64,000 nt of DNA from Candidatus Magasanikbacteria bacterium RIFCSPLOWO2_12_FULL_43_12 (GTDB lineage Bacteria > Patescibacteriota > Patescibacteriia > Magasanikbacterales > UBA922), in the NCBI GenBank assembly GCA_001783065.1, contig MFQN01000003.1, positions 15,314 to 79,313 on the forward strand, written 5' to 3'. Made by a program: the position numbers and the translations under genes. Below the pieces are notes generated by a model. That model was not told where the DNA came from. It made no database searches and saw nothing but the letters and a program-made list of their open reading frames with translations. Position 1 is the stretch's first letter. Every line of letters starts with the position of its first letter. This document shows, one piece after another, positions 5,022 through 30,003 of the stretch.

Positions 5022-5125
5022 AAAATTTTAATTAAACATTAATTTTTTATCTGTCTATATTATACTTCAATCTAAAAAATAGCGCAACAAAAAAACAGCC
5101 ATACGCTGTCATAAATAATAAAGAA

Positions 5126-5700: not shown

Positions 5701-5744
5701 TTGTATACTAAAAACGGTTGACTGTCAAGGGAGCGACGGTGTAA

Positions 5745-5872
5745 ATTTTTAATTTTTAATTTGTAAACAATTTTTAATGAATTAATTTTCAATTACCAAA
5801 TGGCGGCATTATCACTAATTGAAAATTGGAAAATTGGTCATTGTTTAAAAATTACAAATTACAAATTAAAAA
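5745..5872. repeat. AT-rich palindromic intergenic element (AATTTTTAATTTGTAA ... TTACAAATTACAAATTAAAAATT); family member 1
   Basis: Long imperfect AT-only inverted repeat directly downstream of the recG stop; the same family recurs at 11602-11713 and 16040-16165. Confidence 0.5.
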
Positions 5873-8149
5873 TTATTCTAAATGCACTCTCTCTCCCCAC
5901 TCCTCTACTTTCTCTTTCAGCGCCGGATATTTTCCAAAATCCATCCCCCGCGCTAAATCGCGCGCCAGTTTTATAAGCTGTCCGTCTTTCATGGTAGCCA
6001 ACCGAAAATTTTCCATTCCGCTTTGCGCCGTGCCATAGACTTCGCCGGGGCCGCGGTTTTCCAAATCATATTCCGCGACTTTGAAACCGCTGGTGTTTTG
6101 TTCAAAAAATTTCAAACGCTCCGCGACTTTCGGAGAATCGCTATCCGTGAATAAAAAACAATATGATTGATGCGTGCTCCGGCAAACCCGGCCGCGGAAT
6201 TGATGCAATTGCGCCAAACCAAATCTTTCCGCGCCCTCAATCATCATCACGCTGGCATTAGGCACATTCACGCCAACCTCAATTACTGAAGTTGAAACCA
6301 AGATATTGATTGCTTGCCCAGTAGTGATGCTGAAAGCATCTACTACTGTGGATCCATTGCTAAACTGCTCCATTGTTTCTTGTTTTTCAGTTGATTTTAA
6401 TTTCCCATGCAAAAAACCAATTTTCAAATCCGGAAAAATCGTCTTAGATAACTTTTCGTATTCTACCATCACCGTTTTTCTCTCGTCATTTTGAAATTTG
6501 AAATTTGAAATTTGAAATTTATTTGTATCTTGTATCTTAGTATTTTGGTCAGTCTGAATCAACGGACAAACTACAAACACTTGTCGTCCTTGCTTCACTT
6601 GTTCTCTAATAAACTGATACGCTTTATCCCGATTGCGCGGTTCAACCAATCGCGTTTTAACCGGCTTACGCCCTGGCGGCATCTCGTCAATGATTGACAA
6701 ATCCAAATCGCCAAACACCGTCAACGCGAACGACCGCGGAATCGGTGTCGCCGTCATGCTTAAAAAGTGCGGCGTGGTTATCCCCCTCTCCTTGCCAAGG
6801 AGAGGGGCGGGGGGTGAGGTGGTCTCGCCGAGAGAGAGGTCTCGCTCGCCAACCCGCGTTTTCCCTCTCAACACCTTTCTCTGCTCCACTCCAAACCTAT
6901 GCTGTTCATCCACGATAACCAAACCAAGATTTTTAAATTGCACATCTTCAGACAGCAACGCCTGCGTCCCGACAATAACGCCAACTTCCCCATCTTTTAT
7001 TTTATTCCGCAATTTACTTTTACTATTTATCTCCCTATCTCCATTTATCTCCCTTATCATTCGCTGGCTTCCGGTAAACAATCCCAAACTAACTTTATCT
7101 CCCAGCGCCTCCAACAAAGTCTCAAAGTGCTGTTTAGCCAATATCTCGGTCGGACACATCAGCGCGGTCTGAAACCCATTCAACGCCGCGTTATACATCG
7201 CCATGGCCGCGACAACTGTTTTGCCGGAACCAACGTCGCCTTCAAGCAAACGATTCATTGGCTCGTCTTTTTCCAAATCGCGCAAAATTTCCCAGGCCGC
7301 GATTTTTTGTTTTTTAGTTAATTTAAACGGTAAAGAATCAACAAATTTTTTCGTTTCTTTTTCTTTGAATTCAATTTTCGGCGCGACTGCTTTTTTGATT
7401 TCCTGCCTTATCATCTCGCCGCGCAACTGCAAAATAAAAAGCTCATCAAATTTCAACCGGCGTTCCGCGTGTTTCAATTCGTCCTGCGATTCCGGAAAAT
7501 GAATCGCTTTAATCGCTTCAACCAAACTCATAACATCCGCGCGGTCGCGCAAATTTTCCGGCAACCACTCTTTAATCTGGTTCGCGAGATTAATCACCTG
7601 ACTCAACAAAAACCGCAACTGCTTATTCGTAATCCCGCTCGTTAACGAATACATCGGCACAATTCTGGCAGTGTGAGTAGTGCGCGTCCCCTCTCCTCGT
7701 AGAGCCTGCACTGAGCTCGCCGAAGTGAGAGGGGCAGGGTGAGGTCTCTCGCGTTCGTACGCCGGCCCCACCATCTGCGCCCCAAAAAAATCACCGGTAA
7801 CTTTGCCGGAAAGATAAACCCTATCCCCCGCCTTCAAAATCTTCGCGATAAACGGCTGGCCAAACCACACCACGCGCAACTGACCGGTGTCATCAGCCAC
7901 CACCGCCTCGGTGATAATCGTCCGCTTGCGCGGACTGCGCTTGCTCGCTATCAATTCAACCTTGCCGCGCACGCTCACCTGCATTCCCTCGCGCAAATCT
8001 TTAATCGGAACGACTTGACTATAATCTTCATATCGGAAAGGAAAATAAAACAACAAATCTTTGGCTGTTTCAATACCAAGCTGGCGCAGTTTTTTCTCCA
8101 ACGTCTTGCCAACACGGTTTAAATTTGACACCGGTGTAGATAAATCCAT
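5873..8149 (-). CDS. recG: ATP-dependent DNA helicase RecG (with in-frame insertions)
   Basis: 758 aa; wedge domain, helicase motifs ...GDVGSGKTVVAAMAMY..., ...VIVDEQHRFGVEQR..., ...MTATPIPRS... It carries extra segments not expected in RecG: a KFQISNFKFQ tandem block and two GC-rich palindromic insertions. Confidence 0.9.
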   Translation of the reverse strand: MDLSTPVSNLNRVGKTLEKKLRQLGIETAKDLLFYFPFRYEDYSQVVPIKDLREGMQVSVRGKVELIASKRSPRKRTIITEAVVADDTGQLRVVWFGQPFIAKILKAGDRVYLSGKVTGDFFGAQMVGPAYERERPHPAPLTSASSVQALRGEGTRTTHTARIVPMYSLTSGITNKQLRFLLSQVINLANQIKEWLPENLRDRADVMSLVEAIKAIHFPESQDELKHAERRLKFDELFILQLRGEMIRQEIKKAVAPKIEFKEKETKKFVDSLPFKLTKKQKIAAWEILRDLEKDEPMNRLLEGDVGSGKTVVAAMAMYNAALNGFQTALMCPTEILAKQHFETLLEALGDKVSLGLFTGSQRMIREINGDREINSKSKLRNKIKDGEVGVIVGTQALLSEDVQFKNLGLVIVDEQHRFGVEQRKVLRGKTRVGERDLSLGETTSPPAPLLGKERGITTPHFLSMTATPIPRSFALTVFGDLDLSIIDEMPPGRKPVKTRLVEPRNRDKAYQFIREQVKQGRQVFVVCPLIQTDQNTKIQDTNKFQISNFKFQNDERKTVMVEYEKLSKTIFPDLKIGFLHGKLKSTEKQETMEQFSNGSTVVDAFSITTGQAINILVSTSVIEVGVNVPNASVMMIEGAERFGLAQLHQFRGRVCRSTHQSYCFLFTDSDSPKVAERLKFFEQNTSGFKVAEYDLENRGPGEVYGTAQSGMENFRLATMKDGQLIKLARDLARGMDFGKYPALKEKVEEWGERVHLE
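6489..6520. repeat. tandem heptamer (TTGAAAT)x4 plus (TGTATCT)x2 inside the recG coding sequence, in frame
   Basis: ttgaaatttgaaatttgaaatttgaaattt atttgtatcttgtatct; translates (minus) to ...NKFQISNFKFQND... within RecG. Confidence 0.8.
6781..6850. repeat. GC-rich palindromic element, copy 1 (in frame within recG)
   Basis: CCCCTCTCCTTG C CAAGGAGAGGGG, then CGGGGGGTGAGGTGGTCTCGCCGAGAGAGAGGTCTCGC; encodes ...TTSPPAPLLGKERGITTPH... in RecG. Confidence 0.8.
7683..7762. repeat. GC-rich palindromic element, copy 2 (in frame within recG)
   Basis: CCCCTCTCCTCG..(insert)..TGAGAGGGG then CAGGGTGAGGTCTCTCGCG; same arms and tail as copy 1. Confidence 0.75.
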
Positions 8150-8157
8150 AAGTTAGT

Positions 8158-8200
8158 ATAATTCCCCTCTCCTTGTAGGAGAGGGGCGGGGTCCCAACTT
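8158..8200. repeat. GC-rich palindromic element, copy 3 (intergenic, just upstream of the recG start)
   Basis: CCCCTCTCCTTGTAGGAGAGGGG CGGGGTCCC. Confidence 0.8.
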
Positions 8201-8277
8201 CCATTATACCAAAAACCTGACTAACAAAAAAACCGCTCCGTAAAAATACGAAACGGTTTTTTAATCATTAAATCAAA

Positions 8278-8742
8278 TCACGCAGCCAATCTCACAGTAT
8301 CTTCCTCCTGCGCAGCTTTGGATAATTCATTTATTTTATCCTGAACATCGCCCATGTCTATTTTGGCGGTGTCGCCTTTTTCCATAGCCGATAACGCTTC
8401 CCGCATCCGGCCGTCAATCATCTGCGCCACATTTTTCCAACCCTCTCTCTGTTCTTCTGATAAACCGCGAGTGAGTGTCACGTGATCTTTTATTTGTTCG
8501 GCCGCGCCTCCCCAAAAACCTAATAAATAATGTCTTTCCAAAGCTGGGTCTTTAGGCATGTCTATCATCGGTACGCCGGCAAAAATCTCGCCATCAAATA
8601 AAACCTCGTGTGTTTGTCGCCACCCTGTCTTCTCGCCTTGAAGACGCATCTGACCTTCCTGTCTTTTTCTGCTTTCTTCCGGAGATAACACGCCTTCATC
8701 GCCTTCGTTGGAATATTTTATTGCTCTTAAGAGTTCTGCCAT
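8278..8742 (-). CDS. hypothetical protein (154 aa from MAELLRAIKYSNEG...)
   Basis: The ORF track shows 8278..8967, but its first 75 codons overlap tRNA-Arg (8791-8862). The first ATG clear of the tRNA is at 8740-8742. No recognisable domain. Confidence 0.45.
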   Translation of the reverse strand: MAELLRAIKYSNEGDEGVLSPEESRKRQEGQMRLQGEKTGWRQTHEVLFDGEIFAGVPMIDMPKDPALERHYLLGFWGGAAEQIKDHVTLTRGLSEEQREGWKNVAQMIDGRMREALSAMEKGDTAKIDMGDVQDKINELSKAAQEEDTVRLAA

Positions 8743-8790
8743 ATTTTTGAAATTAAAATAGCTTGCAGGGCGTAATGAAATGAAGCCCTG

Positions 8791-8862
8791 TGCACCCGCG
8801 AAGAATCGAACTTCGATTACAAGATCCGCAATCTTGTGTCCTATCCGTTGAACGACGGGTGC
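8791..8862 (-). tRNA. tRNA-Arg (anticodon GCG as read), CCA not encoded
   Basis: Minus strand GCACCCG TC GTTC AACGGATA GGAC A CAAGA TTGCGGA TCTTG TAAT CGAAG TTCGATT CTTCG CGGGTGC A; all stems pair (one G-U in the D-stem). Confidence 0.75.
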
Positions 8863-8989
8863 GTTTGCTTGCCGTATTTTATCACAAAACCCCGTCTTGT
8901 CAACACAACCCCAACTCTTGCTTGGAACAATCATCCGTCGTCGCTCGTCGCGTGTTCCATGATCCATGTTACGTGGATCCTGAATCGTG

Positions 8990-9490
8990 TCAATGTATTT
9001 TCCAATTTCTCGCCGCCCGATCCGTCAACGGTTCCTCTTTTTCAATATCCTCCGACAGATACTCGCGCAGGCTGTGCTTAACCTCAATCGGATTCATGTC
9101 TAAAAGCGGAATACGCAGTATTGGTTGAAGCGTATTTTTAGTGTCCAAAAATAATGTTTTGACTTCCGGCGGGTTGTAAACAATATAAAAATTCTCAAAT
9201 TCTGCGTAGGGATAAAAACGGGTGCCGACAATTACGCCCAAATCGGTTATCTGAAACGGAATCTGACGCGGTTCTTGATGCGATTGCAAAAATAAAATAA
9301 TCGCCGCCAAGATAACGATTAAAGAAAACAAAAAGTTGCCTGTAAAAACTCCATACAAAACCAATGCCAACCCCAAGACCGCTGCCAAAACATACCACAA
9401 CATCCCGCGGGCATGCTTTTCATATTCTAAAATTGTCCACTCGTGGATAACATCGCCAAGTAATGTTTCTTCGGTGATTTTTTGCGGCAT
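8990..9490 (-). CDS. hypothetical membrane protein (two predicted TM helices)
   Basis: 166 aa; hydrophobic stretches LWYVLAAVLGLALVLYGVF and FLFSLIVILAAIILFL. Confidence 0.55.
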   Translation of the reverse strand: MPQKITEETLLGDVIHEWTILEYEKHARGMLWYVLAAVLGLALVLYGVFTGNFLFSLIVILAAIILFLQSHQEPRQIPFQITDLGVIVGTRFYPYAEFENFYIVYNPPEVKTLFLDTKNTLQPILRIPLLDMNPIEVKHSLREYLSEDIEKEEPLTDRAARNWKIH

Positions 9491-9586
9491 ATTAAATTAA
9501 TTCCGTAGTTATATTGTACCAGATACAAAAAACATTGTAAAACTTCCACAGACCCTTTGCCAAGTCTTGCAACTACGTAAACTATA

Positions 9587-9988
9587 TCAATTTTTTAGAT
9601 TGATAGCCAGTTCCGGATCAGCTGTTTCTTCAAGTCGTTCATAACCGACACGAGCCAACCAGAGCTTGAATGGCTCGGCGTTGGGCGAGGGAATTGATTG
9701 AATGAGACGAAGCATTACTTCAGTATCTGCGGCATCGGTAAGACGCATTTTACCATCCGGCGCAATCATTTTCAAAGCGTGACATTTTGTCACGGTTTCT
9801 CCTCCCCCTTCTTTTAATAATCTTTCTTTAAGTTTCCGCCAATAGGCCGCAGGATCAACACTTTTTGTTAAAACAGCAATGATGTCGGAAACGGAAAAAT
9901 ACCAAAACTCTTTTTCTTCGTCCCAATGACGGCGGATTTGTTGTCCTTCAAAAATGGCAATGACTTTGTTTTTTGATTGTTTTTTCAT
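9587..9988 (-). CDS. Bro-N/antirepressor-like domain protein
   Basis: The pattern ...KVIAIFEGQQIRRHWDEEKEFWYFSVSDIIAVLTKS... resembles Bro-N/KilA-N-type domains. The ORF-track start at 10036 overlaps tRNA-Val; the start is taken as ATG at 9986-9988 (MKKQSKNK...). Confidence 0.5.
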   Translation of the reverse strand: MKKQSKNKVIAIFEGQQIRRHWDEEKEFWYFSVSDIIAVLTKSVDPAAYWRKLKERLLKEGGGETVTKCHALKMIAPDGKMRLTDAADTEVMLRLIQSIPSPNAEPFKLWLARVGYERLEETADPELAINLKN

Positions 9989-9997
9989 AAAAACACA

Positions 9998-10073
9998 TGG
10001 TGGTCGCACCTGGATTCGAACCAGGGACCTTCGCAATGTGAATGCGACGCTCTAACCAGCTGAGCCATGCGAC
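9998..10073 (-). tRNA. tRNA-Val (anticodon CAC), CCA encoded
   Basis: Minus strand GGTCGCA TG GCTC AGCTGGTTA GAGC G TCGCA TTCACAT TGCGA AGGTC CCTGG TTCGAAT CCAGG TGCGACC A CCA. Confidence 0.9.
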
Positions 10074-10164
10074 CATAGCTGAAACCATAATATCACATGA
10101 TAATCAAAAAATCAATGATCTGGCCTTGTCAAATCCTCCAAAAACCGCTATACTATGGCCAGAT

Positions 10165-11601
10165 ATGGAAACCAGACGGATAAATTTTTTATATACCAAC
10201 AATCCGATAGAAATTCCGCCGGAATTGCCGCCGCAAAAATCGCGCAAATGGCCGATTTTTTTGATTGTAATCGCGCTGTTAATTATTATTGGCGGCGTGA
10301 TTAAACTGATGGCAAAAGAAAACGCGCCCGATGATCCTTTGGCGTATGACCCGATAACACTGGAACCAAAAAAACCGGAAGGATTTATCAGCAAAATCAC
10401 GCAAATGGTTTTTTCGCGCGAATACCAGCTGAAAGGATATTCGGATGATAGAATAAATATTCTACTGCTTGGAATCGGCGGCATCGGCCATGACGGTCCG
10501 TTTTTAACTGATACGATAATGATCGCCAGTTTGAAGCCTTCAACCGGAGAAATCGCCACTATTTCCATCCCCCGCGACCTGGGTGTGGAAATCCCCGGGC
10601 AAGGCCTGAATAAAATAAATTATGCCGGCGCTTATGGCGAAGCCAAAGGGAGCGGAACCGGCGGAGCATTTGCCGTGAAAATTATTGAAGAAACTTTTGA
10701 TTTGAAAATTCATTATTACGCCCGCGTTGATTTTAAGGCATTCGCGGAAATTATTGATGAATTGGGTGGAATAACCATTAACGTGGAAAAATCATTTACT
10801 GATGAAATGTACCCGACAAAAAACGGAGGATACGAAACAGTCAGTTTTAAAACCGGAACGCAAACTATGAATGGCGCTACCGCGCTGAAATTCGTCCGCT
10901 CCCGCCACGGCAATAATGGCGAAGGCTCGGATTTCGCCCGCGCCCGGCGCCAGCAAAAAGCGATTTTCGCGCTGAAAGAAAAAGCCTTGGCGTTTTCCAC
11001 GCTGGTGAATCCGATTAAAATCAACAACATCCGCAAGACTTTATCCGACAATATCGCCACCAATTTAGAATTTTCCGATTTGATGTCTTTTTTCAAGTTA
11101 ATGCGTGAATTAAAAGTGCCAAACATCAGCACCACGGTATTGGATGACAGTGTTAATGGAAATTTGCAAAGCGCGACAACCGAATTCGGTTCGTTTATTC
11201 TTATGCCAAAAACCGGAAACTTTTCTGAAATAAACAATTTGATTGAAAATATTTTTGCCAAGACTCCGGTTAAAATTGATGACACTCCGGAACAATCCGC
11301 GATCGCTCTGCCGCCGGCGAAAATAGAGGTCCAAAACGGCACCTGGATTGCCGGCCTCGCCGCGCGCATGGGCAAACGATTGGAAGATAAAAATTTTATA
11401 ATAACGGCTGTCGGCAATACTGAAATTAAACCGATGCCAACCAGCGGAATTTATAAAATCAACGCCAACGCGCCGTTTGAAGTGATGCAAGCATTGCAAA
11501 AAGAACTCCGCATTCCGATTCGACAAACCTTGCCAAGCAACGTCACTGCTACCAGCACCGCTGATATACTGGTGCTGTTGGGGGAAGATATGAGAGAATA
11601 A
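10165..11601 (+). CDS. LytR-CpsA-Psr (LCP) family cell-envelope protein with an N-terminal TM helix
   Basis: The ORF-track start at 10042 lies within the tRNA; the start is taken at METRR (10165). TM WPIFLIVIALLIIIGGVI. LCP core ...INILLLGIGGIGHDGPFLTDTIMIASLKPSTGEIATISIPRDLGVEIPG...YARVDFKAFAEIIDELGGITINV... Confidence 0.85.
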   Translation: METRRINFLYTNNPIEIPPELPPQKSRKWPIFLIVIALLIIIGGVIKLMAKENAPDDPLAYDPITLEPKKPEGFISKITQMVFSREYQLKGYSDDRINILLLGIGGIGHDGPFLTDTIMIASLKPSTGEIATISIPRDLGVEIPGQGLNKINYAGAYGEAKGSGTGGAFAVKIIEETFDLKIHYYARVDFKAFAEIIDELGGITINVEKSFTDEMYPTKNGGYETVSFKTGTQTMNGATALKFVRSRHGNNGEGSDFARARRQQKAIFALKEKALAFSTLVNPIKINNIRKTLSDNIATNLEFSDLMSFFKLMRELKVPNISTTVLDDSVNGNLQSATTEFGSFILMPKTGNFSEINNLIENIFAKTPVKIDDTPEQSAIALPPAKIEVQNGTWIAGLAARMGKRLEDKNFIITAVGNTEIKPMPTSGIYKINANAPFEVMQALQKELRIPIRQTLPSNVTATSTADILVLLGEDMRE

Positions 11602-11713
11602 TTTTCAATTTCTAATTTTTAATTTTCAAACAATTTTCAATGAACTAATTTTCAATTATAAAACTCGGCTCATTAATTGAAAATTAAAAATTGAAAATTG
11701 AAAATTTCTGTGT
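11602..11713. repeat. AT-rich palindromic intergenic element (AATTTTCAATT ... AATTGAAAATT family), member 2
   Basis: aattttcaatttctaatttttaattttcaa...aattgaaaattaaaaattgaaaattgaaaattt; inverted-repeat symmetry. Confidence 0.5.
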
Positions 11714-13123
11714 ATGTCAACACCAGCCACAATCAAGCCTAACAATCTTCCCACCGTCGTCCTCGTCGGCCGAGTTAATGTCGGCAAATCAACTTTGTTT
11801 AATCGACTGACGGAAAAAAATCAAGCGATTGTGTCCGGTATTCCCGGCACTACCCGCACCAATAATGAAGGGCTGGTTTTGTGGCGCGGAAAATATTTCC
11901 GATTGATTGATACCGGCGGACTGACTTTTGACGAAAAAATCCAGCTGGAACCGGATATCATTAAACAAAGCGAAATGGCTGTGGCGGAAGCTGACATTAT
12001 TATTATGGTGGCTGACGCGCAAGACGGCGTCTTGCCGCAAGAAAAAGAGCTGGCAAAACGGATACGCCGAATCGCGAACAAACCGATAATGCTGGTTGCC
12101 AACAAAACCGACAGCGAAAAAATCGCCAAAAATCTGCGCCTGTCAGAATTCATGCGCCTCGGATTAGGCAAACCATTTACGGTTTCCGCCATCAGCGGCA
12201 GAAGCACCGGGGATCTGCTTGAAGAAATTTTAAAAATTCTTAAAAAAATCAAAAAAAATCTCAAAACCAAAATCACGGAAAAAGAAATAATCCAGGTAAG
12301 TTTGGTTGGCAAGCCGAACGTGGGAAAATCTTCGCTGTTCAACAAATTGATCGGCCAAGAAAAAGTGATTGTCAGCCCGATCGCCCACACCACGCGCGAA
12401 CCGCACGATACGCTGATGTCGTATGAAGACCCTTCGGTCATTCGACAAGCTCATGGCTCAGGGCAAGTTCTGATTAATTTTATTGACACTGCCGGCATCC
12501 GCCGCAAAGCCAAGGTGGAAGGCGAGCTGGAACAAAAAGGCATTGGCAAAAGCATCCAAGCGCTGGAAAAATCCGACATCTGCCTATTCGTGATTGATGG
12601 CAAAGAAATAATTTCTTCCCAAGACCAGCAGTTGGGCGGATTTTTGGAAAGGCGCGCCAAAAGCGTAATTATTTTAATCAACAAGTGGGACTTATCGCCT
12701 GATAATAGCGACCGTCAGCGAAATGATGTTAAAAAAATGATCTACGATGAATTCCCACACCTCCAATTCGCGCCGATTATGTTTATCAGCGGCAAAACCG
12801 GTTATCGCGTCCATGATATCTTCCCTCTAATCACACATGCTTGGCGCAGCCGGCACACCATTGTTCCGGAGGATGCCCTACGAGCATTTTTAAAGCAACT
12901 GATAAAAACCCATCGGCCCGCGCGCGGCAAAGGCACACGCCAGCCGGAGATTATCGCCATCCGCCAGATTGCCTCTAATCCGCCGGTTTTGAACACGGTT
13001 ATCAAAGCCAGAACATCTCTGCACCGTTCTTATGTTAATTTTATTGAAAATAAACTCCGCGAGCAGTTTGACTTCTTCGCCACGCCGGTTATAATTAAAC
13101 TATCAAAAAACAAAAAACTATGA
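11714..13123 (+). CDS. der: ribosome-biogenesis GTPase Der (EngA), tandem GTPase domains
   Basis: Two P-loops, GRVNVGKSTLFNRL and GKPNVGKSSLFNKL; DTGG/DTAG motifs; KH-like C-terminus; 469 aa. Confidence 0.9.
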   Translation: MSTPATIKPNNLPTVVLVGRVNVGKSTLFNRLTEKNQAIVSGIPGTTRTNNEGLVLWRGKYFRLIDTGGLTFDEKIQLEPDIIKQSEMAVAEADIIIMVADAQDGVLPQEKELAKRIRRIANKPIMLVANKTDSEKIAKNLRLSEFMRLGLGKPFTVSAISGRSTGDLLEEILKILKKIKKNLKTKITEKEIIQVSLVGKPNVGKSSLFNKLIGQEKVIVSPIAHTTREPHDTLMSYEDPSVIRQAHGSGQVLINFIDTAGIRRKAKVEGELEQKGIGKSIQALEKSDICLFVIDGKEIISSQDQQLGGFLERRAKSVIILINKWDLSPDNSDRQRNDVKKMIYDEFPHLQFAPIMFISGKTGYRVHDIFPLITHAWRSRHTIVPEDALRAFLKQLIKTHRPARGKGTRQPEIIAIRQIASNPPVLNTVIKARTSLHRSYVNFIENKLREQFDFFATPVIIKLSKNKKL

Positions 13124-13665
13124 AGCTGGTTGTCGGGTTAGGAAATCCGGGAAAAATATACGCGAAGACGCGCCACAACGCGGGTTTTATGGTATTGGAT
13201 AAATTGCGCGAGGAGTTTAAAGAAAATAATATTTCCAACTGGGAGTTGAGCAAAAAATTCAATGCCGAAGTCTGCGGCTGTACCATCAGCGGCAATAAAA
13301 TCGTGCTGACCAAGCCAATGACTTTCATGAATGACTCGGGTCAAGCCGTCCAGCTCATCGCGCATTTTTATAAATTAACTCCGGCTGATTTAATCGTGAT
13401 TCATGACGACAAAGACATCAAACTCGGTGAAATAAAAATCCAAACCAACCGCTCTTCCGCCGGCCACAATGGCGCGCAATCCATCATTGACCACATTGGC
13501 ACGCAAAACTTCACCCGCGTCCGCGTCGGTGTCGCGCCGGAAAATCCAAAAAAAATGTCCGACACCGCGAAGTTTGTTTTGAACAGGTTTGGGTTGTTTG
13601 AGAGAAAAAAAATTGAAGGAGCCGTAAAACAAACTGTGAAAGAAGTATTGGGTTTGATTAAATAA
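13120..13665 (+). CDS. pth: peptidyl-tRNA hydrolase
   Basis: MKLVVGLGNPGKIYAKTRHNAGFMVLD... is the canonical Pth N-terminus; 181 aa. Overlaps the der stop by 4 nt. Confidence 0.9.
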   Translation: MKLVVGLGNPGKIYAKTRHNAGFMVLDKLREEFKENNISNWELSKKFNAEVCGCTISGNKIVLTKPMTFMNDSGQAVQLIAHFYKLTPADLIVIHDDKDIKLGEIKIQTNRSSAGHNGAQSIIDHIGTQNFTRVRVGVAPENPKKMSDTAKFVLNRFGLFERKKIEGAVKQTVKEVLGLIK

Positions 13666-13668
13666 ATT

Positions 13669-14556
13669 ATGCGCGAAGAAATCACTAGAAGAAATTTTTT
13701 GAAAAAAACCGGAGCAATTTTAGGTTTGGCCGCTTTGGAACAAATGGGTGTTAGCGAAGCCAATGCCGAACCGAAAATTGACACGGCGACAGGTGGTAAA
13801 GAAAAAGAAAAAAACCAACTGCCGGAGATTGAATACCAAGACAAACAATTAGACGGGTTTGTTTACCAAAACAACCGCGACCGAAGAGGAAAACTAAAGG
13901 TGGAATCTCCGAAAAACGGAAGGATACTTTTTTTTAGGGAGTCGCTATCTCACAAACCAAATACAATATTACGCCAACTTGATCACGAATTGTACCACCA
14001 AAATTTTGATAAAGCCGGATTGGAAAAACAAACGGAAATCGCGCGCTTAATTTTATCAAAGTACAAAATAGAAGACATTTTAAAACAAGTCCTGAATGAA
14101 CCGACTTACGAGACGCAATTTGAACAATTGCGAAAACAATCCGGGCAACCAACCGCGGAAATTTATGCTGTCAATGAGTTTCTGGGCCACGTCATGAGCT
14201 ACGCCGATTACCCGCCGCCGGAAGTAAAAAACCCCAAAGGACATTTCACCAAACAGCAGTGGACGGAATTCTTATCTGAAGAGATAAAAAACGGCGGAAC
14301 GGAAGAAACTCTTATTGAACAATTTAAACAAAATCCGAATCTGATCACGCCCGCCTCTTCCGCCGCGTATGATGTTAGCGATAAATTCTTTTTTGAACTG
14401 CGGCAAAACAACATGTTGCTTCCAAACGATCTTAAAAAAGCGCTGGAAAAGTACGGTTTAACCGCCAATACCGAACGCGCCAAGGTTTTATTGGAGAGAA
14501 TAAAAAATCTAAAACAAAAGACACCAAATAGTCCCGATAGGGACGCCAGATTGTAG
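13669..14556 (+). CDS. hypothetical secreted protein with a twin-arginine (Tat) signal peptide
   Basis: N-terminus MREEITRRNFLKKTGAILGLAALEQMGVSEANA (RRxFLK motif); 295 aa; no recognised domain. Confidence 0.65.
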   Translation: MREEITRRNFLKKTGAILGLAALEQMGVSEANAEPKIDTATGGKEKEKNQLPEIEYQDKQLDGFVYQNNRDRRGKLKVESPKNGRILFFRESLSHKPNTILRQLDHELYHQNFDKAGLEKQTEIARLILSKYKIEDILKQVLNEPTYETQFEQLRKQSGQPTAEIYAVNEFLGHVMSYADYPPPEVKNPKGHFTKQQWTEFLSEEIKNGGTEETLIEQFKQNPNLITPASSAAYDVSDKFFFELRQNNMLLPNDLKKALEKYGLTANTERAKVLLERIKNLKQKTPNSPDRDARL

Positions 14557-14720
14557 CCAGGGCATTTATGCCCTGGAAAAGATTCACATTTAAACAAAAG
14601 TCCCAGAGGGACGGCACAAGTTATATTCAATACTTTCCAAAATATCTATTTTGAGCGATGTGTCGTCCCTCCGGGACTATCCGACATTATTGATCTTTTT
14701 CCAGGGGCTAAAGCCCCTGG
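14557..14720. other. nested dyad-symmetric GC-hairpin element (two CCAGGG-N-CCCTGG hairpins flanking paired GTCCC-N4-GGGAC arms); candidate structured RNA, MITE or terminator array
   Basis: CCAGGGCATTTATGCCCTGG (14557-14576); GTCCCAGAGGGACG (14600-14613) pairs with CGTCCCTCCGGGAC (14664-14677); CCAGGGGCTAAAGCCCCTGG (14701-14720). A third GTCCCGATAGGGAC lies at 14531-14545. No ORF. Confidence 0.35.
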
Positions 14721-14951
14721 CTACTATCTGTCGCCCATGTTGGGGCTCAAAACGATTGGACAATTGAAGTACCTGACTACGACCCTTACGGGACTTAACG
14801 ATATAAAATACATTTTGTAAGCATTAGACTGCCTGCCTATAGATCAATTGTCCATAACGGGATATCTAAAGAGATCATTTGTTGCATTAGATTTTTAAAC
14901 CAAACCCATTAGCAGCATTAGCATAAATTAGTATATTGGCATTATACTCAA

Positions 14952-16031
14952 ATGCGCAAAGAAATCCTCCTCTCCTACTTCCCTAAAATCACCCCCAAAC
15001 GCTACCAGCAAATGCTGGGGCTTTTTGCATCTTTGGATAACGCCTGGCAAGGACAATTTGACGATTACAAAAAAATCGGCTGGGAAGACGATTTGATTAA
15101 TGAATTCCTGAAATGGCGCGACGCGGTTGATGAAGAAAAAATTGAAAAAATTCTGAAGCAGGAAAAAATTCATTGCCTGCTAAAAGACAACGTTGATTAT
15201 CCGCCGCTGTTGAAAGAAATTTACGATCCGCCGTTTTGTTTGTTTGTCCGCGGTGAATTGAAGCCAAACGAATTCACGCTGGCCGTGGTCGGTCCGCGCA
15301 AATTCACTCATTACGGCAAACAAATAACCGAAGAGCTGACGCGCGACCTGGCCGGACAAGGGATTACGATCGTCAGCGGTCTGGCTTTGGGAATTGACAG
15401 CGTCGCGCATCAGGCCGCACTGAACGCGAACGGAATCACGGTCGCCGTGCTTGGAACAGGAATCAATCGCGCGCACATTTACCCGGCCGCCCACAAACAG
15501 CTGGCGGAAAAAATTATTGATAGCGGTGGAGCGGTCATTTCCGAATACCCGCCGGGCACTCTGCCGACCAAATTTACTTTTCCCCGCCGCAACAGAATTA
15601 TTGCCGGCATGTCGCTCGGCACTCTGGTGATTGAAGCCGCGGAAAGCTCGGGCGCGCTGATTACGGCGCAATGCGCGCTTGATTATAATCGCGAAGTTTT
15701 CGCCGTGCCGCAAAATATTACTTCGCCGACAGCGCTGGGGACAAACACTTTAATTAAAAACGGCGCGCATCCGGTAACTGCGGCGCAAGATATTTTTGAC
15801 GCGCTAAATTTGCATGATGTAAAAAAATTCATCGCTAATCGCGAAATTATTCCTGACTCCCCGACCGAAGCGGAAATCCTCAAGCATCTTTCCCGCGAAC
15901 CGGCTCATGTTGACCAGCTCGTCAAACTCTCCGGCCTTGACAGTCCGGCGGTAAATAGTACACTGGTACTTATGGAGATGAAAGGGAAGGTGAGGAATTT
16001 GGGAGGGATGATGTACGTGTTAAGTAAATAA
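14952..16031 (+). CDS. dprA: DNA processing protein DprA (Smf)
   Basis: Rossmann-like core ...LAVVGPRKFTHYGKQITEELTRDLAGQGITIVSGLALGIDSVAHQAALNANGITVAVLGTGI...; C-terminal winged-helix-like tail; 359 aa. Confidence 0.85.
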   Translation: MRKEILLSYFPKITPKRYQQMLGLFASLDNAWQGQFDDYKKIGWEDDLINEFLKWRDAVDEEKIEKILKQEKIHCLLKDNVDYPPLLKEIYDPPFCLFVRGELKPNEFTLAVVGPRKFTHYGKQITEELTRDLAGQGITIVSGLALGIDSVAHQAALNANGITVAVLGTGINRAHIYPAAHKQLAEKIIDSGGAVISEYPPGTLPTKFTFPRRNRIIAGMSLGTLVIEAAESSGALITAQCALDYNREVFAVPQNITSPTALGTNTLIKNGAHPVTAAQDIFDALNLHDVKKFIANREIIPDSPTEAEILKHLSREPAHVDQLVKLSGLDSPAVNSTLVLMEMKGKVRNLGGMMYVLSK

Positions 16032-16039
16032 TAAGTAAA

Positions 16040-16165
16040 TAGAACCCATATGATTTAACTAAAATTACCAATTCTCAATTTTCATAATTTTCAAAAAAAA
16101 TTTAAAATTTTGAATTTCTCCTGAAAATTGAAAATTCGTAAATTGAAAATTTTAATATAATTTCT
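16040..16165. repeat. AT-rich palindromic intergenic element (AATTTTCAATT/AATTGAAAATT family), member 3
   Basis: aattaccaattctcaattttcataattttcaaaaaaaatttaaaattttgaatttctcctgaaaattgaaaattcgtaaattgaaaatttt. Confidence 0.5.
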
Positions 16166-16858
16166 ATGCAAAAACTTAATCTCAAAAAAATCATCTTCCT
16201 CGCCGCCTTCGCTCTCATCGGTCTCGCCGCGATGCAGGTTCCGTTCAGCCAGCTCGTCGGCGCGAAGGGCGTCCGTTTCTCGCTCTTTGACTTCTACGGC
16301 CCGATCGCCGGCGGATTTGTCGGTTCAATCTGGGGTTTGGTGACAGTCGGGATAATGCAACTGGCCAACTGGGCATGGCACGGTTTCGCAACTGACGCCG
16401 GAACGATTATCAGATTTTTCCCAATGTTGTTTGCTTTATTGTATTTTGCTAAAAAAACACGATGGATGTTGTTGGTTCCGGCAATCGCTATGATTGCTTT
16501 CTGGGCGCATCCGGAAGGGAGACAGGCGTGGTATTACGCTCTTTACTGGTTAATTCCGATTGCCGCGTATTTCTTTCATGAAAAATCGATCCTGCTCCGC
16601 GCTCTCGGTACCACTTTCACCGCTCACGCTGTCGGCGGGGCATTGTGGATTTGGATTTTCAATATGAAAGCAATATTGTGGATTGGCTTAATCCCCGTAG
16701 TCTGGAAAGAACGAGGTCTGATGGCGATCGGCATTACTCTCACTTTCATTCTCTTTAATTTTTTGATGAGCGTTATCGCGCAAAAAACAAAAATCCAGTT
16801 GCCGTTCATAAAATTAAATCCGAAATACTCGCTCCAGCAAAATAAAACAACCCTTTAA
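16166..16858 (+). CDS. polytopic integral membrane protein (possibly an ECF-transporter S-component-like protein; sits upstream of folC)
   Basis: 230 aa, at least 5 hydrophobic helices, aromatic-rich (W/F/Y). The functional guess comes only from the small multi-TM architecture and the folC neighbourhood. Confidence 0.5.
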   Translation: MQKLNLKKIIFLAAFALIGLAAMQVPFSQLVGAKGVRFSLFDFYGPIAGGFVGSIWGLVTVGIMQLANWAWHGFATDAGTIIRFFPMLFALLYFAKKTRWMLLVPAIAMIAFWAHPEGRQAWYYALYWLIPIAAYFFHEKSILLRALGTTFTAHAVGGALWIWIFNMKAILWIGLIPVVWKERGLMAIGITLTFILFNFLMSVIAQKTKIQLPFIKLNPKYSLQQNKTTL

Positions 16859-16875
16859 CAGAGTTGCTTTAGCGG

Positions 16876-16963
16876 CGGAGAGCAATGGAGTCGAACCATA
16901 TTCGTCTTGCGACGAACCGACTACTTATCAGGTAACGTTCTGCGCCGGCAGAATTTACTCTCC
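16876..16963 (-). tRNA. atypical long (88 nt) tRNA-like gene: Ser/Sec-like architecture (9-bp acceptor with G discriminator, 6-bp D-stem/4-nt loop, long variable arm, 4-bp T-stem) but an Ile-type anticodon loop CTGATAA (GAT)
   Basis: Minus strand GGAGAGTAA A TTCTGC CGGC GCAGAA CG GTTAC CTGATAA GTAGT CGG TTCGTC GCAA GACGAA T ATGG TTCGACT CCAT TTGCTCTCC G. It shares the identical 15-mer ATGGTTCGACTCCAT with the element at 331-430. Folding was done by eye. Confidence 0.45.
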
Positions 16964-17009
16964 ATGCGCACCGCCAGCGATATTTTATCATAAAACAATA
17001 AAACAAAAC

Positions 17010-17030
17010 ACCCCTTTCGGGGGTTTTGTC
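17010..17030 (+). terminator. rho-independent terminator-like hairpin CCCCTTTCGGGGG + TTTTG
   Basis: cacccctttcgggggttttgtc; GC stem with a T-run on the plus strand, downstream of the membrane-protein gene. Confidence 0.5.
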
Positions 17031-17082
17031 GATTCGCGAAAACGAATACGGTTCGCTACCTGATAAGTACTCCAAATATATC

Positions 17083-18495
17083 ATGCTGCAAGAAATTTGT
17101 CAAGTTTTTTATCCACAACAGAACATGAACTTCAACCAAGCCTACAACTATATTCTTTCTCTTAATAATCTGCCGAGAAAAGAATACATGAGCGATCCGC
17201 GCCATTGCGGATGGTATTTGTTGCGTTTGCAATTCTTTTTAAATCTGATTGGAAATCCGGAACGCAAAATCCCCCACTATATTCACGTAACCGGCACATC
17301 AGGTAAGGGATCGGTAACCGCGTATCTGCATTCAATCCTGCAAGCTTCCGGCAAAACCGTCGGCTCAACCTATTCTCCGCACCCAACGATAATCACTGAA
17401 CGTTGGAAGGTCGGGAAACATTACATGACTAAAAAAGAGTTTGCCGATATCGTGGAATATCTAAAACCAAAACTGGATGAATACATCGCCAAAACGCCTT
17501 ATGATATGCTTTCTTTTTTTGAAGTTACCGAAGCGATCGGCTTGTTATTTTTCGTCCGCAAAAAAGTCAGCTGGGCGGTGATGGAAGTTGCTTGCGGCGG
17601 CCGGACAGACTCCAGCAATATCATTCCTTGGAAAGACGCGGCGATAATCACCAATATCGGCGTGGACCACATCGGCGTGCTTGGCAGAAACAAAGCGGAA
17701 ATCGCGTATGAAAAAGCGGGAATAATTAAGCGAGGCGCGCCAGTATTCACGATGGAGAAGGATGAGAAGATGTTGGAAATCATAAGAAAAGAATGCAAAA
17801 AAAATTCAGCCAAACTTTATCTCTCACATCCTACGCCCTACGCCCTACGCCCAACGACTGACATAGGACATATGGCATATGACGTAGGTAAGATGAAATT
17901 TAGTTATCAAAACGAAAATTATTCTATCCCTTGTCTCGGCGCTCACCAAATTCGTAACGCTATTCTCTGCATTGAGATTGCCCAACATTTAGGAATCAGC
18001 CGACAGTCTATAAAAAAAGGATTAAGCCGGGTTCAACAGCCGTTGCGAATGGAAGTTGTTTCTAAAAATCCGCTAATAATTCTTGATGGAGCGCATAATC
18101 CGGATAAGATGCGGACGACGGTAGATACACTTCATCACTTCATCACTTCATCACTTCATCACAGCGACACGAGACGCAATGTCAATTTACTGGTTGGTTT
18201 TTCCGGCGACAAAAACGTGGCAAAAATGATAAAACAACTTGTTTCCCTAAAACCCAAAACAATCGCGGTGACACGCAACACTACCAACCCGTTCCGCAAA
18301 GTGGCTGACCCGCAATCCACAAGCAAACAATTCAAAAAACTTTTACCGAAAACGAAAATCAAAATTTTTCTTGATCCTAAAACCGCGTTAGCTTGGTCAA
18401 AAAAACAAACAAAAAAAGACGAAATATTGCTCGTTACCGGCTCAATATTTGTAAGCGGAGAACTCCGCCCTCAATTTAAAGTGAAAAAGAAATAA
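17083..18495 (+). CDS. folC: folylpolyglutamate synthase/dihydrofolate synthase FolC (Mur-ligase family)
   Basis: P-loop ...IHVTGTSGKGSVTAYL...; Mur-ligase middle and C-terminal regions. The ORF-track start at 17026 overlaps the terminator hairpin, so an internal ATG (17083 or 17125) is more likely. Carries two in-frame tandem-repeat insertions. Confidence 0.8.
   Translation: MLQEICQVFYPQQNMNFNQAYNYILSLNNLPRKEYMSDPRHCGWYLLRLQFFLNLIGNPERKIPHYIHVTGTSGKGSVTAYLHSILQASGKTVGSTYSPHPTIITERWKVGKHYMTKKEFADIVEYLKPKLDEYIAKTPYDMLSFFEVTEAIGLLFFVRKKVSWAVMEVACGGRTDSSNIIPWKDAAIITNIGVDHIGVLGRNKAEIAYEKAGIIKRGAPVFTMEKDEKMLEIIRKECKKNSAKLYLSHPTPYALRPTTDIGHMAYDVGKMKFSYQNENYSIPCLGAHQIRNAILCIEIAQHLGISRQSIKKGLSRVQQPLRMEVVSKNPLIILDGAHNPDKMRTTVDTLHHFITSSLHHSDTRRNVNLLVGFSGDKNVAKMIKQLVSLKPKTIAVTRNTTNPFRKVADPQSTSKQFKKLLPKTKIKIFLDPKTALAWSKKQTKKDEILLVTGSIFVSGELRPQFKVKKK
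17830..17852. repeat. tandem heptamer (CTACGCC)x3 in frame in folC
   Basis: cctacgccctacgccctacgccc, encoding ...PTPYALRPT... Confidence 0.8.
18129..18161. repeat. tandem octamer (CTTCATCA)x4 in frame in folC
   Basis: cacttcatcacttcatcacttcatcacttcatcaca, encoding ...LHHFITSSLHHS... Confidence 0.8.
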
Positions 18496-18594
18496 AAACG
18501 AATCAATATTTGACACTTTCGTAAATGTTGTATATCATTAAAGACAATTTCGCAGTTCGTAATTTCGTATCCGGTTCGTAAGTTCGCACATATT

Positions 18595-20898
18595 ATGAAA
18601 ACCCTCGTCATCGTAGAATCCCCCACCAAGGCCAAAACCATCACAAAATTTTTAAATAAGGACTTCGTCGTGGAGTCCTCTTTTGGTCATGTGCGCGATC
18701 TGCCGGCGAGTGAGATGGGCGTGAATACGGAAGATGGGAGTTTTGAACCAAAATACATCGTAGCCAGAAAAAAAGCGCCGACCGTAAAAAAACTGAAAGA
18801 ACTGGCGAAAAAAAGTGATGAGATTATCTTTGCTACTGATGAGGATCGCGAAGGTGAGGCTATTTCTTGGCATTTGGCAAAACTGTTAGGCGTCGAACCG
18901 CAAGATGCCAAACGGATCGCGTTTCACGAAATCACCAAACACGCGATTGACGAAGCATTAAAAAATCCTCGCGCCATTGACCAAAAATTAGTTGACGCCC
19001 AGCAAGCGCGCCGAATTTTAGACAGATTGGTCGGTTATGAACTATCCCCTCTCTTGTGGAAAAAAGTCGCTAAGGGCTTGTCCGCCGGCCGCGTCCAATC
19101 AGTCGCAGTGCGCTTAATTGTGGAGCGCGAACGAGAGATAAAAGCGTTTGTCCCGCAGGAATATTGGAGTGTCATTGGTTTATTCGCTCCTACATCCTAT
19201 GTCCTAAGTCCTATATCTGCAGAACTACACTCAATCAACGGCAAAAAATTAGACAAACTTGATCTCAAAACAAAGGAACAAATTGACAATATCCTCGCGG
19301 ATTTGAAAAACGCGGAATATAAAATTTCTGACATTAAAAAATCAGAACAAAAACGCACCCCGCCTCCGCCGTTCACAACTTCAACCTTGCAACAAGCGTC
19401 AAACCAAAAATTAGGATATTCCGCCAAACAAACTATGCGTCTGGCGCAACAGCTTTATGAGGGTGTGGAATTAGGATCCGATGGTTCGGTAGGTTTAATC
19501 ACTTACATGCGCACTGACGCGGTGAATTTGTCGGAAAAATTTTTGACTGAAGCGCGCGCTTTAATCCGAAAAGACTTCGGCGATAAATACTCTCTGCCAA
19601 AACCCAGATTTTATCAAAACAAATCCAAGGGCGCGCAAGAAGCGCACGAAGCAATTCGCCCAGCTGACGCGAGCCGCACGCCGGAATCAGTCGCGTCGCA
19701 TTTAGACCCGCAACAATTAAAACTTTATACTCTGATTTGGAAACGCGCGGTCGCCACGCAAATGAGCGAGGCGAAATTGGATAAGACAACCGTAGACATC
19801 GTCAATCTGAAGTCCGAAGTCCGAAGTCCGAAGTCCGCTTACACCTTCCGCGCTAATGGTCAAACGGTTGCTTTTGACGGCTGGTTAAAACTTTATCCGG
19901 AAAGCGTAAAAGAAGAAATGCTGCCGGAATTAACAATCAACGAACCGATGGACTGCAAAGAATTAAAGCCGGAGCAACATTTTACCGAACCGCCGGCGCG
20001 TTATTCTGACGCGACTTTGGTTAAAATAATGGAAGAATATGGTATCGGCCGACCTTCCACTTACGCGCCGACGATTGCCACGATTGAAGATCGCGGTTAT
20101 GTGGAACGCGATGAAAATAAAAAATTAAAACCCAGCGATATAGCGTTTGTGGTTAATGATTTGCTGGTGGAACATTTTAAAAACATTGTTGATTACCAAT
20201 TCACCGCGGAAATGGAAGAAACGTTGGATAAAATCGCCGAAGGCGCGGTTGAATGGCGGCCGATGATTAAAAATTTCTATGGCCCTTTCCACGAAAGCAT
20301 TGTCGCTAAATCCTCTGAACTGCAAAAATCCGCCACGGTTGGCATGCATGAACTCGGTCATGATCCAACCACCAATCTGCCAATATTCGTGCGCCTCGGA
20401 CGCTTTGGTCCATACGCGCAATTGGGCGAAGGCGGCGGTGATGACAAACCGCGCTTCGCGCCGTTTAGACCGGGTCAAACATTGGACACCATCACCCTGG
20501 AAGACGCGGTGAAACTTTTCACTTTGCCGCGCGACTTAGGGCTGAGTGAAACCGGAGAAAAAATTACTGTCAGCACCGGACGTTATGGACCGTATGTTAA
20601 ATGCGGAGAAAAATTTTATTCGCTTAAAAACATTGACCCGTTTGAAATAACTTTGGAACAAGCGCTGGTAGTGATTAAAGAAAAAAACGAAGCGGAAGCG
20701 AATAAAATTATCAAAACTTTTCCTGATTCTGAAATCCAAATTCTCCACGGGCGGTACGGACCATACATAACTGACGGCAAAAAAAACGGCCGCATTCCAA
20801 AAGATACCGAACCTTCTAGTCTTGAACTATCACAATGCCAAGAAATTCTGGCCAACGCGAAAGAGAAAAGACCGCGGAGAGGCAAAACTAAAAAATAA
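18595..20898 (+). CDS. topA: DNA topoisomerase I
   Basis: Toprim N-terminus MKTLVIVESPTKAKTI...; ...EDREGEAISWHL...; active-site region ...GLITYMRTD...; C-terminal repeats with GRYGPY motifs; 767 aa. Confidence 0.9.
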   Translation: MKTLVIVESPTKAKTITKFLNKDFVVESSFGHVRDLPASEMGVNTEDGSFEPKYIVARKKAPTVKKLKELAKKSDEIIFATDEDREGEAISWHLAKLLGVEPQDAKRIAFHEITKHAIDEALKNPRAIDQKLVDAQQARRILDRLVGYELSPLLWKKVAKGLSAGRVQSVAVRLIVEREREIKAFVPQEYWSVIGLFAPTSYVLSPISAELHSINGKKLDKLDLKTKEQIDNILADLKNAEYKISDIKKSEQKRTPPPPFTTSTLQQASNQKLGYSAKQTMRLAQQLYEGVELGSDGSVGLITYMRTDAVNLSEKFLTEARALIRKDFGDKYSLPKPRFYQNKSKGAQEAHEAIRPADASRTPESVASHLDPQQLKLYTLIWKRAVATQMSEAKLDKTTVDIVNLKSEVRSPKSAYTFRANGQTVAFDGWLKLYPESVKEEMLPELTINEPMDCKELKPEQHFTEPPARYSDATLVKIMEEYGIGRPSTYAPTIATIEDRGYVERDENKKLKPSDIAFVVNDLLVEHFKNIVDYQFTAEMEETLDKIAEGAVEWRPMIKNFYGPFHESIVAKSSELQKSATVGMHELGHDPTTNLPIFVRLGRFGPYAQLGEGGGDDKPRFAPFRPGQTLDTITLEDAVKLFTLPRDLGLSETGEKITVSTGRYGPYVKCGEKFYSLKNIDPFEITLEQALVVIKEKNEAEANKIIKTFPDSEIQILHGRYGPYITDGKKNGRIPKDTEPSSLELSQCQEILANAKEKRPRRGKTKK
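19807..19831. repeat. tandem heptamer (GAAGTCC)x3+ in frame in topA
   Basis: ctgaagtccgaagtccgaagtccgc, encoding ...LKSEVRSPKSA... A second degenerate TCCTAYR repeat lies at 19190-19220. Confidence 0.8.
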
Positions 20899-30002: not shown

Positions 30003-30003
30003 A

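Follow-up and report, generated by a model that had tools for sequence, protein, structure and literature searches.

The stretch of DNA analysed here (the window, 64,000 nt of contig MFQN01000003.1) comes from a groundwater member of Candidatus Magasanikbacteria, an ultra-small and uncultivated lineage of the candidate phyla radiation (CPR, Patescibacteria). It matches a metagenome-assembled genome (MAG) assigned to Candidatus Magasanikbacteria, and its topoisomerase I (TopA) shows 100% identity to that of Candidatus Magasanikbacteria bacterium RIFCSPLOWO2_01_FULL_43_20b. Three genes of the window, recG, a folC-like gene of the Mur-ligase type and topA, contain tandem arrays with a unit of 7 or 8 nt that run through the coding sequence in frame. 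A previous interpretation made from the letters alone (the sequence-only reading) had pointed out these arrays and proposed that they might be selfish or contingency elements, the latter switching the genes, which it assumed to be essential, off by slippage. By employing Tandem Repeats Finder (TRF), an exact-repeat scan and inspection of the sequence, we recovered every array that it had named in recG, folC and topA, and the host open reading frames (ORFs) are intact across them as it had described. The (GAAGTCC) array of topA was also where it had been placed, but has 4.1 copies instead of three. Genes were identified with Pfam, dinucleotide shuffles served as the null for repeat counts, and RNA folding was scored as z against shuffles. 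The genes, with the arrays found inside them, are listed below; homologues of the folC-like gene carry the name dihydrofolate synthase/folylpolyglutamate synthase.

5873-8149, minus strand: recG, 758 aa (Pfam RecG_wedge, DEAD, Helicase_C and RecG_dom3_C), with two adjacent tandem arrays and three hairpin-type inserts
6490-6520, minus strand: perfect heptamer array of recG, (TTTGAAA)x4.4, on the coding strand (AAATTTC)x4.4, encoding ..KFQISNFKFQ.. (TRF, exact-repeat scan)
6523-6547, minus strand: adjoining degenerate heptamer array of recG, (TTGTATC)x3.4, on the coding strand (AAGATAC)x3.4 (TRF)
7025-7052, minus strand: weak array of recG with a unit of ~9-10 nt, GGAGATAAAT-like, 70% matches, at another recG indel hotspot (TRF)
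17083-18495, plus strand: folC-like Mur-ligase gene, 470 aa from an ATG, the longest ORF starting from a TTG at 17026 (Pfam Mur_ligase_M and Mur_ligase_C)
17830-17856, plus strand: left array of folC site 1, (CCTACGC)x3.9, of which 3.3 copies perfect, encoding ..PTPYALRP.. (TRF, exact-repeat scan)
17860-17888, plus strand: right array of folC site 1, (GACATAG)x4.1, degenerate, an inverted degenerate copy of the left array (TRF)
18128-18162, plus strand: perfect octamer array of folC site 2, (CACTTCAT)x4.4, encoding ..LHHFITSSLHH.. (TRF, exact-repeat scan)
18595-20898, plus strand: topA, 767 aa (Pfam Toprim, Topoisom_bac and Toprim_C_rpt)
19189-19215, plus strand: array of topA site 1, (CCTAYRN)x~3, encoding ..PTSYVLSP.., of the same unit family as folC site 1 (TRF)
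19809-19837, plus strand: perfect heptamer array of topA site 2, (GAAGTCC)x4.1, encoding ..LKSEVRSPKS.. (TRF, exact-repeat scan)
32193-32224, minus strand: degenerate heptamer array, on the coding strand (ACACAAA)x4.6, within an unannotated 418-aa ORF (31246-32502) (TRF)

These in-gene arrays belong to a strong excess of short tandem repeats with periods of 7 and 8. When counting arrays of at least three copies in the window, we found 10 with period 7, compared with 0.07 per shuffle, and four with period 8, compared with 0.1, and no array of at least three copies with a period of 4-6 or 9. The excess extends to 197 kb of Magasanikbacteria DNA, comprising the window and seven related loci (~130 kb) and not a whole genome, where near-perfect arrays of at least 2.5 copies number 30 at period 7 (1.3 expected) and 12 at period 8 (0.2 expected). 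Between 2.5 and 4.5 copies, the number of arrays in the 197 kb drops steadily with rising copy number, as stepwise growth predicts. An apparent mode of about four copies in the TRF output was rejected as an effect of the detection threshold, given the steady fall of the stricter count. The related loci L004-L010 are all array-rich, and no such array is present in a Sphingobacterium locus with a comparable G+C content. The window has at least 10 different units, with only AATTTTC-like and ATTAGTATC-like units recurring; single-linkage clustering of the units was discarded as a sign of common origin, as it did not keep most AT-rich heptamers apart.

Coding DNA makes up 89.6% of the window and non-coding DNA 10.4%. 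Of its 20 arrays, 12 lie between genes or run over the end of a gene, leaving eight inside genes. Beyond what the sequence-only reading had described, most window arrays of this kind lie between genes, and recG also bears in-frame hairpin inserts. The intergenic arrays include the following.

5744-5875: hairpin directly after the recG stop codon, with arms of AATTTTT/TTAAAAA-type heptamers (RNA fold z = -3.8)
11599-11706: hairpin filling the lytR-der spacer, with arms (AATTTTC)n and (GAAAATT)n (z = -5.0)
16070-16151: hairpin separating dprA from the next ORF, its arms made of AATTTTC/GAAAATT units, conserved in L004 (z = -3.7)
27308-27353, 28047-28093 and 30075-30117: three ATTAGTATC-type arrays between genes of a type IV secretion-like cluster
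27959-27993: TATACTA-type array in the same type IV secretion-like cluster (27308-30117)

The hairpins downstream of recG, between lytR and der and beside dprA share one layout, in which AATTTTC-like units make up one arm, a loop follows and reverse-complement units form the other arm. For comparison between species we used L004 and L007, which belong to a sister species (MAG JACQQA01, ~83% DNA identity to the window), and L005 (JACRPD010000022.1), L006 and L008 from more distant ones. In three species the whole lytR-der spacer forms a single long hairpin, each time from a different unit (window 11601-11714, L004 2655-2750, L006 4063-4185), the L004 hairpin consisting of TAAGTGNN and the L006 hairpin of ATACTAAT (z = -6.6 and -7.3). 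A classical ribosome-binding site or terminator has no evident place in this spacer, whose hairpin may be an element of RNA processing, stability or punctuation. Rfam gave no known RNA family overlapping any array.

Translated insertions in tolerant loops

When aligned with homologues and with solved structures, the in-gene arrays appear as in-frame, translated and lineage-specific insertions, which supports this part of the sequence-only reading. Both TopA sites are alignment gaps relative to the Streptococcus mutans structure 6ozw, with site 2 facing a 9-aa gap, and all RecG inserts align to gaps in the Thermotoga maritima structure 1gm5. Across 120 TopA and 120 FolC homologues, the four TopA and FolC sites are indel hotspots at which 18-36 of ~120 proteins per site carry at least five extra residues, unrelated in sequence. 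The commonest internal peptide periods among homologues at the FolC sites are 7 and 8, which is the expected product of 7- and 8-nt DNA units. For FolC, we used an AlphaFold2 model (mean pLDDT 89.4, most of the protein above 90), in which the two sites are the segments of lowest confidence; site 1 is predicted at a pLDDT of ~52 (residues 251-270, falling below 50 at 259-266) and site 2 at 73-79, where the insert would partly extend a helix. The peptides predicted to span the arrays include FQISNFK, SEVRSPK and FITSSLHHSDTR. As to their size, the proposed gain of 8-12 residues per array is roughly right for recG (about +18 aa for both arrays together), folC site 1 (+8), folC site 2 (+6) and topA site 2 (+9), but not for topA site 1, where only about one residue is added.

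The base composition of the arrays is compatible with translation. All well-formed in-gene arrays have a sense-strand unit that is free of stop codons in the three phases, and the (GACATAG) array of folC site 1 evades in-frame TAG through TAT-containing variant units at the critical positions. In contrast, in nine of the 12 intergenic or edge arrays both strands of the unit contain a stop codon, and in a further two arrays one strand does. This difference fits selection on the translated sequence and speaks against bypassing or excision of the arrays.

We also considered whether the in-gene arrays form hairpins as the intergenic ones do. This was rejected for the window's own in-gene arrays (z -0.5 to +1.5), including the left and right arrays of folC site 1, whose pairing is not significant (z = -0.5), and it holds only for the intergenic arrays and the GC-rich or palindromic inserts of recG (z -3 to -7). 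GC-rich hairpins of the form CCCCTCTCC..GGAGAGGGG are located at 6783-6807, ~7690-7740 and 8164-8186, two of them in frame within recG and the third in the intergenic DNA just upstream of it. One of the in-frame copies encodes ..APLLGKERG.., a peptide motif that L008 has at the other recG site, and similar 'PLLGKERD'-type peptides occur at FolC site 2 of other lineages. A further insert of recG (6296-6345, minus strand) is a clean 39-nt in-frame palindrome encoding STVVDAFSITTGQ, with a hairpin z of -5.1, and is absent from four other species and one close strain fragment.

Array length and unit sequence among strains and species

For comparison at the strain level, we used loci L001, L002, L003, L015, L016, L017 and L138 (99.2-99.95% identity, from at least seven samples and different assemblers) together with a 13-member FolC cluster, a 7-member RecG cluster and seven TopA sequences. 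All of these are assembly consensus sequences, in which minority length variants would stay hidden. Across the strain loci and the three protein sets we found no array length variant, coding or intergenic, and copy number is thus fixed everywhere among the ~7-13 sequences per gene; the recG array at 6490-6520 does not differ between any of the RecG strain sequences, L016 and L017. Variation of other kinds does occur elsewhere in the same alignments, namely clustered single-nucleotide polymorphisms (SNPs) that form recombination tracts, a 26-nt indel (5133-5158) and, inside a recG hairpin insert, a length difference of 21 nt. Two sequences that looked like length variants have other causes. The 148-aa FolC fragment P0243 is not a frame-off allele but ends at a 144-N scaffold gap starting just after the site-1 array, and the 751-aa RecG variant P0255 is not due to a three-unit loss, as its 21-nt difference sits in the GC-rich hairpin insert and not in the heptamer array.

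Within the constant length, the units themselves change in concert. In allele B of folC site 2, each of the four units carries T>A at one and the same position (18132, 18140, 18148 and 18156), which turns CACTTCAT into CACTACAT, and no SNPs flank the array within about 500 nt. A strain allele of the right array of folC site 1 differs at 17873 and 17875, and all four combinations of the site-1 and site-2 alleles exist. Strain differences in general are packed in short tracts (window 17589-17983 and 20496-20670; loci L001-L003 and L015), which, along with the four allele combinations, indicates frequent homologous recombination in the population.

At recG, folC site 2 and topA site 2, the sister species has arrays as long as those of the window, degenerate where the latter are perfect. 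Its recG array (L007) equals that of the window in length and consists of degenerate TTACAAA/TTATAAA units. At the other two sites, L004 has (CACTACAT)x4.4 (folC site 2) and (AAGTCCA)x3.9 (topA site 2). Over greater distances the units have been turned over. At folC site 1, L005 and L006 have (AATTTTC)x4.3, and at folC site 2, L005 has an inverted pair of 8-mer arrays and L006 has (AATTAAA)x4.6. At topA site 2, L005 has (CAATTCAA)x4.2 and L006 has no array, with a native GAAGGCAA that resembles the window unit GAAGTCC and so points to local amplification. For recG, the L008 array is (GACTACA)x3.9, and other arrays are found at the 7025-7052 site in L008 and L009. The arrays are thus stable over less than 1% divergence and homogenised at constant length, and their units are replaced over species-level time.

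Two further observations concern L005. Its folC gene has an in-frame TAG (2968-2970) 12 nt upstream of the site-1 array, possibly a pseudogene, an error or a strain variant, and between inverted 8-mer arrays at 1100-1532 it has a gene resembling those for Avd and 23S-rRNA-IVS proteins (1139-1498) in the loop.

Origin of the arrays

The arrays are probably, though far from certainly, the outcome of a clade-wide bias toward tandem duplication and slippage of 7-8 nt, which inside genes survives only in tolerant loops, with stop-free units and a net length of 3n, and yields arrays that are homogenised and turned over without any switching. In this explanation, short tandem duplication or slippage with a period of 7, less often 8, would seed arrays genome-wide as a mutational habit of this Magasanikbacteria clade. 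Those in non-coding spacers would persist freely and form both arms of long hairpins. In genes, a filtered subset would survive, located in insertion-tolerant surface loops, free of stops in any sense phase and with a net insert that is a multiple of three, and these arrays would be read through to add 6-18 low-complexity residues. Once established, an array would be homogenised at unchanged length and its unit replaced over species-level time, with no role as a switch. Directly shown are the excess of periods 7 and 8, the position of the in-gene arrays in loops, a composition compatible with translation, the fixed copy number in strains, and units that change in concert inside an array and turn over from species to species. 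Slippage or tandem duplication is the generating process that we infer, the inserted peptides would be neutral or nearly so, and frame-breaking intermediates of one unit might be avoided through three-unit steps or compensated double events.

Two kinds of evidence weigh against this explanation. Slippage by a single unit of 7 or 8 nt breaks the frame, so that stepwise growth in recG, folC and topA would need lethal or deleterious intermediates, and the route to 3n-compatible arrays is not explained by our data. In addition, some unit families turn up at unrelated sites more often than would be expected if every array had been born locally. The CCTAYRN unit is present in both folC site 1 and topA site 1, and the peptide PTSYVL of topA site 1 is also found at FolC site 1 of another lineage (P0145). 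AATTTTC occurs in three window spacers and in folC site 1 of L004-L006, several loci of L004, L005 and L007 have CACTTACA-type 8-mer arrays, and identical repeat-encoded peptides (IQQFNNSTIQ, ILNLKS, ASLQV) occur in different proteins or sites and in different lineages. Recurrence of a unit, however, need not mean common descent, as (GAAGTCC)n is not lineage-specific. We found (GAAGTCC) arrays of at least three copies in 10 unrelated viral contigs with 35-69% G+C, at least two of them in frame in long ORFs; the IMG/VR contigs L145 and L148, for example, have 3-4 copies in frame, as in ..REVRSPKSEVRSEG.. within a 517-aa ORF. Heptamer arrays that keep the frame therefore also occur outside the Magasanikbacteria clade. 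A metagenome-wide scan with (CCTAYRY)x3 for dispersal in CPR genes was uninformative, with at least 120 matches that were mostly unrelated CCCTACA/CCCTATA heptamer arrays, often beside CCCTAAA runs, telomere-like in appearance and probably eukaryotic.

Among the other explanations, the arrays may be, or descend from, small non-autonomous mobile hairpins with tandem 7-8-nt arms that colonise spacers and insert in frame in tolerant loops, as the Rickettsia palindromic elements (RPEs) do. We consider this unlikely, though it is the main rival, given that the intergenic arrays are inverted pairs with strong hairpins (z -3.7 to -7.3), that a 31-nt non-array core, AAACAATTTTYAATGAAYTAATTTTCAATTA, is present at two unrelated window loci (5765-5795 and 11628-11658), and that the whole hairpin arm with this core aligns over ~70 nt to folC site 1 of L004-L006. 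The hairpins of the lytR-der spacer, drawn from three unit families in three species, the full inverted pair at folC site 2 of L005, of an 8-mer family also found in L005 spacers, the patchy presence of the same repeat-encoded peptides across different genes and lineages, and the clean in-frame hairpin insertions of recG point in the same direction. Against it, each of the four perfect arrays in window genes is a single arm without significant structure, the in-gene units are mostly site-specific with one resembling the native sequence of an array-free relative, recurrent units could mirror a limited set of stop-free AT-rich heptamers, and the 31-nt core has only two copies in ~200 kb and none in the viral contigs. 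On inspecting the array flanks we saw no terminal inverted repeats, target-site duplications or transposase, although no systematic search for them was made. If a mobile origin is true, it would be a second, independent case of the RPE phenomenon. We are a little more doubtful still about an active lineage-specific repeat system, either hairpins with tandem 7-8-nt arms or a dedicated reiterative synthesis or repair process laying several units at once, that would recurrently fill spacers and the same permissive loops in frame and then homogenise or replace the units at constant length. Such a system, if real, would account for non-triplet arrays in genes without frame-shifted intermediates and would represent a new class of in-frame 'protein-remodelling' repeat in bacteria with ultra-small genomes.

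Retention of the inserted peptides for their usefulness, as flexible linkers or interaction surfaces with selection on length and not on sequence, appears improbable. It would agree with the equal array lengths of the window species and the sister species despite changed sequence, with the presence of an insert at both folC sites in all four close species and at topA site 2 in three of four, and with the proposal that Borg ORFs gain functional disordered regions from their tandem repeats (PMC9879509). However, each site is without an insert in most members of the family, the median length at topA site 2 is that of the empty state with L006 having none there, the insert of one species is unrelated in sequence to that of another, and non-coding DNA holds such arrays at a far higher density. 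The role as contingency loci put forward by the sequence-only reading, in which recG, folC or topA would be turned off and on as a single unit is lost or gained, has very little left in its favour. Non-triplet units in perfect arrays are the classic anatomy of a slippage switch, but no length variant was seen in ~7-13 independent strain-level sequences per gene despite SNPs, recombination tracts and indels at other places in these loci, array length is unchanged in the sister species, and the host genes, for a DNA helicase, a Mur-ligase/FolC-like enzyme and topoisomerase I, are not of the surface, host-interaction or restriction-modification type. On the available data, which are consensus assemblies, the contingency interpretation is largely refuted. 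We give the least credence of all to the notion that the arrays are not translated, through bypassing or excision at the RNA or protein level, or are assembly artefacts. Nothing more than the oddness of non-triplet repeats in genes suggests this; in all strains and species the arrays keep the frame and contain no stops, with variant units that would be needless if they were bypassed or excised, and identical arrays were assembled from at least seven samples by different assemblers.

Preference for a clade-wide mutational bias is in line with repeats known from other bacteria. Heptamer simple repeats are over-represented in many bacteria, for which slippage linked to the polymerase footprint has been proposed as the cause, while repeat lengths in multiples of three are those expected in coding DNA; the known heptanucleotide repeats include the tandem heptamers of cyanobacteria, GGGNATC (e.g. 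GGGAATC) of Xanthomonas and Nostoc and TAACTGA of Beggiatoaceae (PMC4692102, PMC4679880). Similar to those of cyanobacteria, Xanthomonas and Beggiatoaceae, the Magasanikbacteria arrays are tandem 7-nt units (typically 2-6 copies) in strong excess, mostly intergenic and often beside start or stop codons, with length and sequence that vary between related species at one site. They differ in having many site-specific units instead of one or a few, in including 8-mers, in lying several times in frame in housekeeping genes, although both kinds are depleted in coding DNA, and in their CPR host. RPEs, as summarised in PMC10969869 (citing Ogata et al. 2000 and 2002), are palindromes of ~100-150 bp in defined families, each with a conserved peptide. 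By that summary they share with our arrays the insertion of small repeated DNA in frame in unrelated housekeeping genes, at positions compatible with fold and function, as well as in non-coding DNA, whereas the in-gene arrays here are 25-35 nt long, tandem instead of palindromic, without significant fold and mostly of unique units.

In Borgs, the giant extrachromosomal elements of Methanoperedens archaea, every tandem-repeat unit within an ORF is divisible by three and copy number varies within populations (PMC9879509). Borg repeats are likewise perfect nucleotide repeats in both intergenic DNA and ORFs, preserve the frame, arise independently and evolve fast; they produce low-complexity or disordered segments, as the arrays here may too (PMC9879509). 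Here, in contrast, the units are 7-8 nt, the peptide period corresponds to three DNA units, and copy number is fixed among strains. The simple-sequence contingency loci of Haemophilus and Neisseria also place a non-triplet repeat in an ORF where a change of one unit would shift the frame (PMC2651432, PMC3315296), but the arrays described here lack length polymorphism, have housekeeping hosts and keep the same length in the sister species. The arrays extend these known kinds of repeat and are not a separate category. A full-text literature search on Magasanikbacteria and tandem repeats gave no paper, and one on heptanucleotide or tandem repeats and the Candidate Phyla Radiation gave nothing on these arrays.

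Non-triplet repeats in ORFs are usually read as a sign of phase variation, and their stability in frame here calls for caution when annotating contingency loci. The arrays also expose a strong period-7/8 mutational signature in this clade, provide a natural map of insertion-tolerant loops in RecG, FolC and TopA, and pose the puzzle of how arrays in which any one-unit change is a frameshift arise, stay perfect and swap their units while the gene stays intact.

Other features of the window

A GC-rich stretch of ~600 nt (5094-5700, minus strand) without a convincing ORF is located between recG and a 1210-aa Ig-like gene. This stretch, which contains AAAGUCCGG and the 26-nt indel that distinguishes strains (5133-5158), has a strong sigma-70-like promoter (TTGACA-17-TACAAT at 5728-5700) and a terminator-like hairpin with a T run (5110-5094), folds with z = -5.75 and matches no Rfam family, making it a candidate for an unknown structured RNA. 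Further along the window, the GGATAC/GGATGC heptads that the sequence-only reading had seen in the leaders of giant secreted-protein genes do exist, but in merely 2-3 copies (40899-40915 and ~56885-56910). We found (GCATCCT)x2.4 and CCGTATN-like heptads ~60-100 nt ahead of two giant ORFs and immediately before TATAAT-like boxes, and these short repeats could be regulatory sites.

Two tRNA genes, at 8790-8862 and 9998-10074, overlap listed ORFs (8278-8967 and the start of lytR, respectively), so that the boundaries of ORF 8278-8967 and the start of lytR are doubtful. ARAGORN predicts a third tRNA, a 90-nt tRNA-Ile(GAT) at 16874-16963, which Rfam does not report. The 1210-aa gene, which has Ig-like and BNR-type domains, contains a 294-nt tandem duplication (3190-3732, 1.8 copies, 77% identity) that is an ordinary domain-level repeat.

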